A stretch of 64,000 nt of DNA from Escherichia coli (GCF_965641715.1 NZ_OZ282453.1), one strand, 5' to 3'. Counted from the stretch's first letter, positions 3,213-31,560 are shown. The notes: generated by a model not told the origin, from the letters alone. Program-made: numbers and translations.

Positions 3213-5578
<2,366 letters not shown>

Positions 5579-5594
5579 TGATATAAAGATGTAA

Positions 5595-5618
5595 GCCGGA
5601 TCCAATGCATTATCCGGC
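5595..5618. terminator. Hairpin between the convergent 3' ends of rtcA and malT
   Basis: gccggat-ccaatgcatt-atccggc, 7-bp stem, sits between the rtcA stop (5581) and malT stop (5624). No strong U-tract, so it may be a REP-like stabiliser rather than an intrinsic terminator. Confidence 0.35.
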
Positions 5619-5623
5619 TAAAC

Positions 5624-8335
<2,712 letters not shown>

Positions 8336-24743: not shown

Positions 24744-26812
<2,069 letters not shown>

Positions 26813-26887: not shown

Positions 26888-28510
26888 TTACAGTTTCGGA
26901 CCAGCCGCTACCAGCGCGGCACCCGCAGGGGTGTCGGTGTATTTATCGAAGTTGTCGATAAACAGTTTCGCCAGGGTTTCGGCTTTTTCCTGCCACTGTT
27001 CCGGAGAAGCGTAGGTGTTACGCGGATCGAGGATCTTAGTGTCAACACCCGGCAGCTCGGTCGGGATCGCCAGGTTAAACATCGGCAGAGTGAAAGTTTC
27101 TGCGTTGTCCAGCGAACCGTTGAGGATAGCGTCGATAATGGCGCGGGTATCTTTAATCGAGATACGTTTGCCAGTGCCGTTCCAGCCAGTGTTAACCAGA
27201 TAAGCCTGCGCGCCCGCCGCCTGCATACGTTTCACCAGCACTTCTGCGTACTGAGTCGGGTGCAGCGACAGGAATGCCGCGCCGAAGCAAGCGGAGAAGG
27301 TTGGCGTCGGTTCGGTGATGCCACGCTCAGTACCGGCCAGTTTGGCGGTGAAGCCAGAGAGGAAGTGGTACTGGGTTTGATCGGCAGTCAGACGAGAAAC
27401 CGGCGGCAGCACACCAAAGGCGTCTGCGGTCAGGAAGATAACTTTCGTTGCGTGACCCGCTTTTGAAACCGGCTTAACGATGTTATCGATGTGATAGATC
27501 GGATAAGAAACGCGGGTGTTCTCGGTTTTTGAACCATCATCAAAGTCGATAGTGCCATCTTCACGCACGGTGACGTTTTCCAGCAGCGCATCGCGACGGA
27601 TAGCGTTGTAGATTTCAGGTTCCGCTTCTTTCGACAGCTTGATAGTTTTTGCGTAGCAGCCGCCTTCGAAGTTAAACACGCCGTCATCGTCCCAGCCGTG
27701 TTCGTCATCGCCAATCAGGCGACGTTTCGGGTCGGTGGAAAGGGTGGTTTTACCGGTGCCGGAAAGGCCGAAGAACACCGCAACATCGCCTTTCTCGCCA
27801 ACGTTGGCGGAGCAGTGCATAGAAGCGATACCTTTCAGCGGCAGCAGGTAGTTCATCATCGAGAACATCCCTTTCTTCATTTCGCCGCCATACCAGGTGC
27901 CGCCAATCAGCTGCATGCGCTCGGTCAGGTTAAAAGCCACGAAGTTTTCGGAATTCAGACCCTGTTCTTTCCACTGCGGGTTAGTGCACTTCGCGCCGTT
28001 CATAACGATAAAGTCTGGTTTGAAACCTGCCAACTCTTCATCGCTCGGGCGAATAAACATGTTTTTGACAAAATGCGCCTGCCAGGCCACTTCGGTGATG
28101 AAACGGACGGAAAGACGAGTATCCGGGTTCGCACCACAGAAGGCGTCGACAACGAACAGACGTTTGCCGGAAAGCTGTTTGGTCACCAGGCCTTTCAGAT
28201 GTTGCCAGGTTTCCGGAGAGAGAGGTTTGTTATCGTTCTTACCTTTGCCTTTGTCTGCCCACCAGAAAGTATCGCGAGTGGTATCGTCACGGACGATATA
28301 CTTATCTTTTGGTGAACGACCGGTGAAGATCCCGGTATCGACGGCAACGGCACCCAGATTAGTTAACACCCCGCGCTCATAACCTGTCAGGCTCGGATCG
28401 AGCTCTTCCTGATACAGCAGGTCGTAGCTTGGGTTGTAAACGATATCATGTACGTCACTGATACCATAAGCCTCGAGTTCTTGCGGGGTCAAACCATTGT
28501 TAACGCGCAT
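26888..28510 (-). CDS. pckA: Phosphoenolpyruvate carboxykinase (ATP) PckA (540 aa)
   Basis: Start at [36 protein letters not shown]; kinase P-loop [13 protein letters not shown] present. Confidence 0.96.
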
Positions 28511-28888
28511 TTCACTGCTCCTTAGCCAATATGTATTGCCTGAATAGTAAAGTCTTTTTGGGGGTGTTAACCGCGACAAGGCTCATAGATTTACGTATCT
28601 GGAGAAATTCATATTTGACAAAAAACTCCGTGATTCCTGTCACGAAACGGTTGCTATTATCGCAGAAATAGCATTTTAGGTGTGGAAAATGTTCTCAAAA
28701 GGTTAAATCTTGGTTTATATGGCGGGAATATTGTGAGTGGAATCGCATTCCTGAATGAAATTGATGCAAATTCAACCGGTAAAGTATCGATTCACCACGC
28801 TAACTTTTTTTGATTATTTTCTGAAAAAAGCAAAATACTACTGCCCGGATGCGATAATTAACCCACCTTTTGATTCTGGATAACCAAC

Positions 28889-30613
28889 ATGGATAACGTT
28901 GAACTTTCACCCGCAACACGCTGGGGGATGATTGCTACCGGATTACTTCAGGGGCTGGTTTGCTATCTGCTGATCGCCTGGCTTGCCGGAAAAAATCACA
29001 GTTGGATTGTTTATGGCGTGCCTGCGACCGTTGCGTTTTCATCCGTTTTACTCTTCTCCGTGATCTCTTTTAAACAGAAGCGCCTTTGGGGATGGCTGGC
29101 GCTGGTGTTTATTGCCACGCTGGGGATGAGCGGCTGGTTGAAGTGGCAAACTGATGGCATGAACCCCTGGAGAGCTGAAAAGGCGCTTTGGGATTTTGGC
29201 TGCTATCTGCTGCTGATGGCAATGTTGTTGCTACCGTGGATACAACAAAGCCTTCGTATCCGCAATGACAGTAGCCGCTATCGCTATTTTTACCAGTCAG
29301 TATGGCATAACGTACTTATATTACAGGTTATTTTTCTCGCCAATGGCCTGACGTGGCTGGTGCTTTTACTGTGGGGTGAGTTGTTTAAACTTGTTGGCAT
29401 CACGTTTTTCAATACGCTCTTTTTTGCAACCGACTGGTTTATGTATCTTACATTAGGTCTGGTTACCGCGCTGGCGTTGATCCTCGCGCGAACACAGTCA
29501 CGTTTAATCGACTCTATTCAAAAGTTGTTCACGTTAATCGCCACGGGGTTGCTGCCGTTAGTATCATTGCTAACCCTGATGTTTATCATCACCCTGCCGT
29601 TTACAGGCCTGAGTGCGATTTCTCGCCACATCTCCGCCGCTGGGTTGCTGTTAACGCTGGCCTTTTTGCAATTGATCTTAATGGCTATTGTCCGCGATCC
29701 GCAAAAAGCGTCACTTCCCTGGACGGGGCCGTTGCGTTGCCTGATTAAAACCGCTTTGCTGGTTGCTCCGCTGTATGTGTTCGTCGCCGCCTGGGCGTTA
29801 TGGCTGCGGGTCGCTCAGTACGGCTGGACTGTCGACCGCTTGCAGGGCGCGCTGGCGGTGCTGGTGTTACTGGTATGGTCGCTGGGGTATTTTGTCAGTA
29901 TCGTATGGCGTAAAGGGCAAAATCCCCTTGTTCTTCAGGGCAAAGTGAACCTTGCGGTTTCGTTATTGGTGTTGGTAATACTGGTGCTTCTTAATTCTCC
30001 GGTGCTGGACAGTATGCGCATTAGCGTGAACAGTCATATGGCGCGTTATCAGAGTGGCAAAAACACGCCAGACCAGGTAACTATCTACATGCTCGAACAG
30101 AGCGGTCGCTATGGACGTGCGGCGCTTGAGTCGCTGAAAAGCGATGCCGGGTTTATGAAAGACCCGAAACGTGCGCGGGATCTGTTGATGGCGTTAGATG
30201 GAGAGCAACATCTTCAGCAACAGATATCGGAAAAAGTATTAGCCGAAAATGTGTTAATTGCCCCTGGTTCTGGTAAACCGGATGCGACATTCTGGTCGGC
30301 CTTAATCCAGGATCGCTATAACGTGATGACCTGTATTGAAAAAGACGCCTGCGTACTGGTCGAGCAAGATCTGAATAGTGATGGCAGGGCAGAGCGGATC
30401 CTCTTTGCCTTTGATGATGAAAGATACATTGTCTATGGCTTTGATCCTGACAAGAAAGAATGGCAAGAGCTTACGATGAGTTTACTTCCGCGTGATATAA
30501 CGAAAGAAAAATTACTCACAGCTGCGAAGGATGGAAAACTGGGAACGAAGCTCAAAGCGTGGCGCGATCTTGTAGTGGATGGTGAAAGGCTGGATGTGAA
30601 TCTGAATGAGTGA
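28889..30613 (+). CDS. yhgE: Inner-membrane protein YhgE (574 aa), function unknown
   Basis: ORF begins [48 protein letters not shown]; many hydrophobic segments in the first 370 residues, then a hydrophilic C-terminal domain. Confidence 0.85.
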
Positions 30614-30675
30614 CAAAGCGCATCAGGTGTATTAGTCGTAAAATCCGGCAGAACCCTCTCTGCCGGACATACTCA

Positions 30676-31560
30676 TTAATGAACTTGCGGATCTGCCGGA
30701 GACGCGTTGTTGCGGATTTCAGCAATATCCATCGCATTGAACAGATAGTGGTTACCGCAGTAATCACAATGCATGTCAATTTCGCCATCTTCCGCCAGGA
30801 TGCTATCGACTTCTTCATCAGGCAGCGTTTTCAGCGCATCGGCGCAACGTTCACGCGAGCAGGTGCATTTGAACTCCACATCCTGCGGATCGTAAACCGT
30901 CACCTCTTCTTCGTGATACAAACGCCACAACACTTCGTTTGCCGGTAAGGTCAGCAGTTCTTCGGTTTTGATGGTTTCGGTTAGCGTCGCCAGGTGGTCA
31001 AAGTCGTCCTGCTGGGCATTTTGCGCAGGCATTACCTGCAACAACATACCGCCTGCAGCCGGTTTGCCGTCTACGTCGCCGGTGCGAATAAACAGACGCG
31101 TCGGCAGCTGTTCAGAACGCATAAAGTAATCTTCCAGGCAGGCCGCCAGGGTATCACCTTCCAGACCCACCACGCCCTGATAGCGTTCACCTTCGCTCGG
31201 GGTAATGGTGATCACCACGTAACCATTGACGACCAGCGTTTTCAGGTCGGCATTTTCTGGAATTTCGCCCTGCACGCGCGCCACACCGCGCATCTGCTGG
31301 TTGTTGTTACCGTTAATAACCGCCAGATTCATCGGACCGTCGCCTTGCAGCTGTACGGTGATATCACCATCAAACTTCAGCGTAGCGGTTAACAGGCTGG
31401 TCGCAACCAGCAGTTCTGCCAGCACGTTTTTAACGGGCTGCGGATAATCGTGATTCTCAAGGATCTGTTGCAGGGTTTCCGAAACGGTTACCAGTTCGCC
31501 GCGAACGGCAAAGTTTTCAAACAGATAGCGATGTAATTGGTCATGTTGCGGCATAATCAT
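30676..31560 (-). CDS. hslO: Redox-regulated chaperone Hsp33 (HslO), about 292 aa
   Basis: C-terminal zinc centre CTCSRERC...HCDYCGNHY; begins (MI)[22 protein letters not shown]. Start may be the ATG at 31552-31554. Confidence 0.93.

Follow-up and report, generated by a model that had tools for sequence, protein, structure and literature searches.

The gene yhgE (b3402) of Escherichia coli lies between pckA and hslO on the stretch of 64,000 nucleotides of the E. coli chromosome analyzed here (GCF_965641715.1, NZ_OZ282453.1; referred to as the window). It is a core gene of the species. Its product is a two-part inner-membrane protein of the DUF4153 family, composed of a predicted 11-helix membrane domain and a hydrophilic C-terminal domain that very probably faces the periplasm, and nearly all of its conserved residues map to what is predicted to be the periplasmic side of the membrane. 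As a whole, the data are best explained by a core, two-part DUF4153 membrane protein with a periplasm-facing binding role, an account that we favor while granting it slightly less than an even chance.

yhgE is a core gene coding for a two-part DUF4153 protein

The original prediction, made from the nucleotide sequence, had proposed a single 574-amino-acid (aa) open reading frame (ORF), had named it YhgE, and had described it as an isolated gene between pckA and hslO without established function. ORF listing returned exactly this frame on the plus strand (Table 1), and the name proved right: yhgE was found and annotated as such in 5425 of 5426 complete E. coli genomes by megablast. The window allele shares 96% of its nucleotides with K-12 b3402, the two differing by 70 nucleotides and 24 residues, 17 of which fall in the C-terminal domain. 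The gene is indeed isolated and transcribed singly, as it is divergent from pckA, with 378 bp between the start codons, and convergent with hslO, with a 62-bp gap. The available labels are "putative transport protein YhgE" for b3402 in RefSeq K-12 (copy of September 2026) and "DUF4153 domain-containing protein" in the Prokaryotic Genome Annotation Pipeline (PGAP). In line with the original prediction, no functional assignment for YhgE, b3402, DUF4153, or DUF7057 was found in the full-text literature outside subscription journals.

Using hmmscan, the protein was assigned to Pfam family DUF4153 (PF13687) with an E value of 1.3e-30 (107.2 bits for a cut-off of 27), and 70 of 76 aligned homologues matched the same model. 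YhgE is thus a member of a family without known function or structure, and its C-terminal alpha/beta domain falls outside the family model. DUF4153 was formerly a member of the Cache clan but was later taken out, having been found unrelated (Upadhyay et al. 2016, PMC4822843). We likewise rejected a relationship with the Cache sensor superfamily, since no Cache family was present among the Pfam matches and the region corresponds to the 11-helix membrane domain. Scans against NCBIfam and against the PADLOC models of anti-phage defence yielded no family at E ≤ 1, and no match was obtained in Rfam or in sequence and profile searches of the PDB. Many of the papers on "yhgE" deal with Pip or with a pilin gene of Lactococcus, both from Firmicutes and unrelated to the E. 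coli protein. Kinship with the YhgE/Pip "phage infection protein" of Firmicutes was considered and rejected on the grounds of the empty NCBIfam scan and of a Pfam match to DUF4153 only; E. coli YhgE has nothing but the gene name in common with Bacillus subtilis YhgE and Lactococcus Pip, which belong to an unrelated family.

When 1.84 billion cluster representatives were screened exhaustively with HMMER, 2042 homologous clusters (50% identity) were identified at E ≤ 1e-3, of which 386 also satisfied E ≤ 1e-30. Among the top 150 of the 2042, most have a length of 550 to 640 aa and an alignment extending from around residue 5 to around residue 571, and therefore the conserved unit is the whole two-part protein. 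The combination of a membrane domain with a soluble C-terminal domain is kept in approximately 2000 clusters, mostly from Proteobacteria. The Salmonella orthologue is 56% identical to YhgE. A genome scan with the most conserved motif of the protein (residues 306 to 317, see below) as the search pattern revealed relatives in the Enterobacterales (Escherichia, Citrobacter, Kluyvera, Enterobacter, Rahnella, Erwinia, and Pragia) and beyond, in Xanthomonadales/Lysobacterales, Beta-proteobacteria, Alteromonas, and alpha-proteobacterial metagenome-assembled genomes (MAGs). The presence of the gene in 5425 of 5426 genomes, the 2042 homologous clusters, a ratio of nonsynonymous to synonymous substitution rates (dN/dS) of 0.25, and a highly confident structure model (both described below) show that the ORF is the real gene yhgE and not a chance ORF. 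We regard its identity and architecture as virtually certain.

Searches of phage and plasmid collections retrieved chromosomal records that had been misfiled there and, on CTX-M plasmids, a 79-aa fragment, but nothing else. On plasmid pJIE137 (NZ_EF219134.1, positions 3392 to 3625), this unannotated stretch is 50.6% identical to residues 26 to 104 of YhgE (E value of 6e-8) and is located approximately 390 bp downstream of ISEcp1-blaCTX-M-62; the same stretch is found on seven further plasmids of Klebsiella, Enterobacter, and E. coli. Apparently, part of a chromosomal yhgE-like gene was mobilized along with the beta-lactamase region. The complete ompR-envZ-pckA-yhgE-hslO-hslR-yrfG-igaA order of the Enterobacteriaceae occurs on a contig entitled Chryseobacterium sp. 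18061, whose YhgE protein is 38% identical to that of E. coli; this record is probably mislabelled or contaminated.

Predicted topology and fold of YhgE

The hydrophobic character of the first 370 residues or so and the hydrophilic character of the C-terminal domain, both part of the original prediction, were confirmed by 11 Kyte-Doolittle peaks between residues 14 and 373 and by the composition of residues 374 to 574, which include 28 Lys or Arg and 34 Asp or Glu residues. Topology and structure predictions, which it had suggested as checks, gave a layout of 11 transmembrane (TM) helices with the N terminus inside and a confident AlphaFold2 model. Using an alignment of 141 homologues, AlphaFold2 attained a predicted local distance difference test (pLDDT) score of 94.6 and a predicted template modelling (pTM) score of 0.88. 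This model was used throughout, and a single-sequence model with a pLDDT of 49.5 was discarded. The high pTM suggests that the C-terminal domain may be docked in a fixed manner on the membrane domain.

The orientation was deduced from the net charge of the loops (K+R minus D+E) over the 141 homologues. The even-numbered loops are positive, with values of +1.4 for L2, +1.1 for L4, +2.2 for L6, +0.6 for L8, and +2.4 for L10, and the odd-numbered loops L1, L3, L5, and L7 have values of −0.6, −0.6, −0.7, and +0.2. Loop L9, at +0.9, owes its positive charge to the conserved R307 and R317 residues located there. By the positive-inside rule, this alternation argues for a cytoplasmic N terminus, 11 spans, and a periplasmic C-terminal domain. 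We have fair confidence in this predicted N-in, C-out topology, and the periplasmic location of the C-terminal domain appears very likely.

A Foldseek search of the model against 350,542 PDB chains retrieved nothing at E ≤ 0.001. The best hit was MurJ, with an E value of 0.078 and a TM-score of 0.12, and the top hits (MurJ, WzxE, and MATE proteins) are transporters or flippases, all non-significant. A fold search of BFVD gave no match, and no likeness of the membrane domain to the solved MOP/MurJ/Wzx, MFS, GT-C, SEDS, or WaaL folds was found. The fold of YhgE, as modelled, is thus without a solved relative in the PDB. Comparisons of helix blocks with hhalign detected no internal repeat (probability <3%), although sequence tests often miss such repeats. 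The generic features of ion-coupled transporters, i.e., an internal repeat and conserved intramembrane charges, were therefore not found.

Conserved residues map to the predicted periplasmic side

All conservation counts were taken over the alignment of 141 homologues. Only R307 is strictly invariant (141/141). It is part of the most conserved motif of the protein, L-R-V-x-Q-Y-G-W-T-x-x-R, at the predicted turn between TM9 and TM10, in which G312 and R317 are each found in 139 homologues, Q310 in 129, and Y311 in 116. Near-invariant residues in the membrane part are W139, N141, W156, L165, F166, F174, F179, F184, P223, F232, L236, and G240, and from the TM9-TM10 turn onward they comprise Q310, G312, R317, N354, P371, D374, Q/H383, R386, G406, G409, C482, and C488. 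Among them, W156, L165, F166, F174, F179, and F184, each conserved in 128 to 139 homologues, belong to an aromatic stretch that encompasses the end of TM5, a short interfacial helix, and the start of TM6, probably on the periplasmic side.

Nearly all the conserved residues map to the predicted periplasmic ends of TM5, TM6, TM7, TM9, and TM10 and to the interfacial and juxtamembrane helices. The main exceptions comprise three residues located more deeply in the membrane, W139 and N141 of TM5 and N354 of TM11, along with R201, which is less conserved and marks the cytoplasmic end of TM6. In mid-membrane, the homologues share no conserved Asp, Glu, Lys, or His residue, N141 and N354 being the only conserved polar residues there. 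Similarly, no conserved His, Ser, or Cys residue suggestive of a catalytic center was present.

A putative periplasmic domain with a cysteine pair and a candidate cation-binding loop

In the model, the C-terminal domain is composed of a juxtamembrane helix with an R-I-S-V-x-S-Q-x-x-R motif, a helical subdomain, and an alpha/beta subdomain (Table 1). Two features of the latter stand out in the alignment. C482 and C488 are each found in 127 homologues and are candidates for a periplasmic disulfide that probably stabilizes the domain. They are followed by a loop, D494-L-N496-S-D498-G499-R-A-E502, that has the 1-3-5-9 pattern of cation-binding loops of the integrin/FG-GAP type, with D494 in 116 homologues, N/D496 in 106, D498 in 115, G499 in 82, and E/D502 in 121. 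The loop is predicted to connect the first two strands (residues 488 to 493 and 502 to 507) of a four-stranded sheet, as the integrin-type motif requires. Both the Cys pair and the loop fit an extracytoplasmic location, and we therefore describe with fair confidence a predicted periplasmic domain with a disulfide and a divalent-cation loop.

What YhgE has in common with the FG-GAP propellers of integrin alpha subunits is this D-x-[DN]-x-D-G-x-x-[ED] loop, predicted to join strands 1 and 2 in a four-stranded sheet. Those propellers have about seven blades, whereas YhgE has a single unit flanked by helices; neither tandem blades nor a family hidden Markov model above threshold was found. A profile of the C-terminal domain gave weak matches to FG-GAP blades in the PDB (CRTAC1, E value of 0.04; integrin alpha-6, E value of 0.24), and at E ≤ 0.01, 2 of 76 relatives had a match to Pfam FG-GAP_3, with a best E value of 0.0019. 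The one relative checked against the FG-GAP_3 cut-off, P0152, scored 14.6 bits versus 26.9. Of 76 relatives, 10 match DUF7057 (PF23167), another uncharacterized Pfam family, in the region equivalent to the YhgE alpha/beta subdomain, and a single one, P0153, exceeds the cut-off (36.6 bits versus 27). For E. coli residues 374 to 574, the Pfam search gave no DUF7057 match at E ≤ 10 and no FG-GAP_3 match. A profile search with the C-terminal domain alone for other architectures returned only YhgE fragments, within the limits of a word-index search.

yhgE evolves faster than its neighbours

Within-species dN/dS ratios were calculated from nine E. coli alleles, all of them full-length. The value was 0.255 for the whole gene, 0.16 for the membrane domain, 0.34 for the C-terminal domain, and 0.41 for residues 495 to 540, as against 0.011 for pck, 0.011 for hslO, 0.05 for hslR, and 0.016 for yrfG. 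The dS values of yhgE and its neighbours were comparable. The nine strains have nine different YhgE proteins, and most of them share one HslO accession. In other genera, the syntenic YhgE proteins are 57% (Citrobacter), 43% (Enterobacter cloacae), and 32% (Atlantibacter) identical to that of E. coli; where syntenic YhgE, including that of Kluyvera, is 32 to 57% identical, PckA, HslO, HslR, YrfG, IgaA, and EnvZ are 70 to 96% identical. In agreement with this fast evolution, YhgE was listed among hotspots of phylogenetic incongruence (Touchon et al. 2009, PMC2617782). Since dN/dS does not reach 1 anywhere, the data are accounted for equally well by relaxed constraint and by diversifying selection.

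Two variants affect the start codon. In strain 3347558 (locus L088, positions 2400 to 2402), the yhgE start codon is GTG rather than ATG, and in an ampicillin-evolved line, Evo3A, it was changed to a leucine codon (PMC7394356). We did not retain the ampicillin tolerance of Evo3A as evidence on yhgE, because the authors ascribe that phenotype to a co-occurring cyaA nonsense mutation (PMC7394356).

Genetic context and regulation

The features of the locus are collected in Table 1. Mechanical ORF listing extends pckA too far, to a TTG at 28579, and hslO to an ATG at 31560; the coordinates given are those that correspond to the K-12 starts.

Table 1. Coordinates of yhgE, of the features of its product, and of the surrounding elements in the window
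Feature	Position	Strand	Residues	Details
yhgE coding sequence	28889..30613	+	1-574	574 codons and TGA stop, ATG start; sole ORF listed there
Membrane domain	28889..30007	+	1-373	11 predicted TM helices (AlphaFold2, hydropathy)
Predicted TM helices 1 to 6			8-35, 38-57, 64-87, 93-122, 127-168, 182-202	AlphaFold2
Predicted TM helices 7 to 11			204-239, 250-268, 280-311, 315-340, 347-368	AlphaFold2
Predicted short interfacial helix			173-180	AlphaFold2; between TM5 and TM6
Pfam DUF4153 (PF13687) match	29042..30133	+	52-415	Profile positions 3-372 of 373
Aromatic stretch	29354..29440	+	156-184	TM5 end to TM6 start; probably periplasmic side
Most conserved motif	29804..29839	+	306-317	Predicted TM9-TM10 turn
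Hydrophilic C-terminal domain	30008..30610	+	374-574	Probably periplasmic
Predicted juxtamembrane helix			375-388	AlphaFold2
Predicted helical subdomain			to ~454	AlphaFold2
Predicted alpha/beta subdomain			455-574	AlphaFold2; four main strands
Cysteine pair (C-x5-C)	30332..30352	+	482-488	Candidate disulfide
Putative cation loop	30368..30394	+	494-502	Integrin/FG-GAP-type pattern
CRP consensus site	28732..28747			pckA-yhgE intergenic region
G+C-rich 9-bp hairpin	30644..30667			62-bp gap between yhgE and hslO stop codons
envZ	25460-26812	+		
pckA	26888-28510	-		K-12-equivalent ATG at 28510
hslO	30676-31554	-		K-12-equivalent start at 31554
hslR, yrfG, igaA	beyond hslO	-		Window gene order

We analyzed the gene neighbourhoods of 80 loci. 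The pckA-yhgE-hslO-hslR order is kept within the Enterobacteriaceae only, and no gene partner common across clades was found in the 80 loci, the neighbours being different in Rahnella, Erwinia, Xanthomonadales, and beta-proteobacteria. In 12 Xanthomonadales loci (among them L037, L053, L065, L071, and L081, at approximately 7760 to 8330), tag, which codes for DNA-3-methyladenine glycosylase I (PF03352), directly follows the yhgE-like gene. In the Stenotrophomonas loci inspected, it overlaps the yhgE-like stop codon by 4 nucleotides. A gene of the uracil-DNA-glycosylase family is found 14 nucleotides downstream of the yhgE-like gene in Hydrocarboniphaga (L003, 7847 to 8542). The occurrence of two different DNA glycosylases in the same downstream position is an unexplained coincidence; both are clade-specific and were set aside as clues to function. 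A Stenotrophomonas maltophilia MAG (L053) harbors tandem yhgE-like genes, coding for proteins of 532 and 603 aa and overlapping by 4 nucleotides (4361 to 5959 and 5956 to 7767).

The divergent pckA-yhgE intergenic region contains TGTGAGTGGAATCGCA, the only match to the CRP consensus TGTGAN6TCNCA in the window. Its center lies upstream of both genes, at approximately 150 bp from the ATG of yhgE and approximately 230 bp from that of pckA. An identical sequence is the "yhgE/pck" CRP site identified by chromatin immunoprecipitation (ChIP) in enterotoxigenic E. coli H10407 (PMC4287617), and a GalR ChIP site was reported in the same intergenic region (PMC5110547). A simple scan picked up no sigma-70-like promoter for yhgE. 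In Salmonella, yhgE was listed among SprB-controlled genes (PMC6726612); in the original Salmonella study, the divergent neighbour pckA is a direct SprB target (PMC5013294). None of the links to CRP, GalR, and SprB reveals a function for YhgE. In E. coli O157 Sakai, yhgE appears with a value of −3.33 among the genes that change at the growth transition in glucose minimal medium (PMC2241611).

Downstream of yhgE, the hairpin in the gap that separates it from hslO has a predicted RNA folding energy of −26.8 kcal/mol in an 81-nucleotide context, with a z-score of −4.5 relative to shuffled sequences. On the plus strand, it was not among the hits of a simple terminator scan. As a U-run is present on the hslO side only, the hairpin is probably the hslR-hslO terminator, possibly bidirectional, and as such probably a shared terminator. 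The spacer is 62 bp long in K-12 as in the window and 134 bp long in two strains (L091 and L093, 4126 to 4259). In strain U14A (L092, 4223 to 5636), it holds an element of the IS200/IS605 type, with a transposase remnant and insQ/tnpB.

Discussion

We propose tentatively, and with distinctly less than even confidence, that YhgE, facing the periplasm, binds or carries an anionic amphipathic molecule of the envelope. This reading stems from the conservation at the predicted periplasmic boundary combined with the lack of a conserved acidic residue within the membrane and of a partner ATPase. In the proposed mechanism, R307, R317, R386, Q310, Y311, Q/H383, and D374, together with the aromatic belt, would form a site at the periplasmic membrane boundary. 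This site would bind the anionic head group of a lipid or lipid-linked molecule in the outer leaflet of the inner membrane, and the periplasmic domain would cap it. YhgE may thus hold, present, or passively translocate an amphiphile, and would be neither a classical enzyme nor an ion-coupled solute pump. Like YhgE, the flippases MurJ and Wzx as well as Wzy and WaaL are polytopic, and by analogy we infer that the conserved arginines of YhgE could hold an anionic head group.

Several points weigh against this proposal. Rapid evolution is unusual for a housekeeping lipid handler, and the putative binding site was delineated from the linear positions of residues relative to predicted helices. The topology is itself a prediction. 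In the C-terminal domain, the similarity to FG-GAP is at the level of a motif, with E values of 0.04 to 0.24 that are not significant, and the E. coli domain reaches no Pfam threshold.

The RefSeq label implies another activity, ion-coupled secondary transport of a small solute. It would suit a polytopic protein of 11 helices, and the top Foldseek hits, non-significant as they are, were MurJ, WzxE, and MATE proteins. However, we assume that the label was based merely on the many membrane spans. No transporter family of Pfam or NCBIfam matches YhgE, its conservation is concentrated on a single membrane face, and it has neither a detectable internal repeat nor a conserved acidic or basic residue in mid-membrane, making such a transporter unlikely in our view. 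We consider less likely still a Wzy- or WaaL-like enzyme, which would act on a lipid-linked substrate at the periplasmic face. Wzy polymerases and the WaaL ligase rely largely on arginines of periplasmic loops, and the invariant and near-invariant arginines of YhgE at the predicted periplasmic boundary, along with its putative periplasmic domain, might be seen in the same light; its predicted overall layout also resembles those of GT-C, Wzy, and WaaL proteins. Nevertheless, no structural similarity was detected across the PDB, which holds WaaL, SEDS, and GT-C structures, and neither Wzy_C nor a similar family was among the Pfam matches. Apart from D374, no conserved His, Asp, or Glu residue could be catalytic, and yhgE belongs to a polysaccharide or envelope gene cluster in 0 of 80 loci.

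The pace of evolution might instead reflect an arms race, if YhgE were a periplasm-exposed receptor for phages, colicins, or contact-dependent toxins, or a signal sensor. The dN/dS ratio of 0.25, rising to 0.41 in residues 495 to 540, as against 0.01 to 0.05 in four neighbours, is consistent with this, as are the location of 17 of the 24 differences from K-12 in the C-terminal domain, the identities of 32 to 57% between orthologues compared with 70 to 96% for the neighbours, and the listing as a hotspot of phylogenetic incongruence (Touchon et al. 2009, PMC2617782). However, relaxed constraint explains these data equally well, as dN/dS is below 1 throughout. The protein has no fused output domain, no linked regulator gene, and no PADLOC match, no dependence of a toxin or phage on yhgE was reported in the literature searched, and a role as a target leaves the retention of the gene in 5425 of 5426 genomes unexplained; we thus attribute a small probability to a receptor or sensor. 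Fast evolution, truncated products in the protein database, and the loss of the start codon in the laboratory-evolved line without a reported cost (PMC7394356) could also evoke a decaying or functionless gene kept by chance. This view is already contradicted by the conservation data, namely, the presence of the gene in 5425 of 5426 genomes, nine full-length alleles with a dN/dS of 0.25 that denotes purifying selection, and an invariant R307 and approximately 25 near-invariant residues across distant Proteobacteria, to which the very confident model may be added. We regard it as extremely improbable.

yhgE is a known gene of a known DUF family and one of the E. coli genes without a tested function. 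The annotation is correct but ordinary, and the additional facts are no surprise in themselves. What is new is the predicted topology, the Cys pair and putative cation loop, the conservation that appears to face the periplasm, the lack of a partner across clades, the fast evolution, and the lack of a solved relative of the predicted fold. The near-universal retention of the gene, the confidently predicted fold without a solved relative, and the conservation of residues predicted to be exposed to the periplasm suggest looking to the envelope rather than to cytoplasmic metabolism, and R307, R317, R386, C482, C488, and the D494-E502 loop are singled out for mutation. It is conceivable, though improbable, that YhgE represents a new inner-membrane fold in which an Arg/aromatic site in the periplasmic leaflet and a calcium-binding, single-blade cap would handle a lipid or lipid-linked anion in the biogenesis of the envelope, or else an inner-membrane entry point for phages or toxins, with a fast-evolving periplasmic domain that would record the conflict. 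YhgE is thus a reasonable target within the y-ome, and a role in handling an envelope lipid or in the entry of toxins or phages would, if established, close a gap in our knowledge of the inner membrane.

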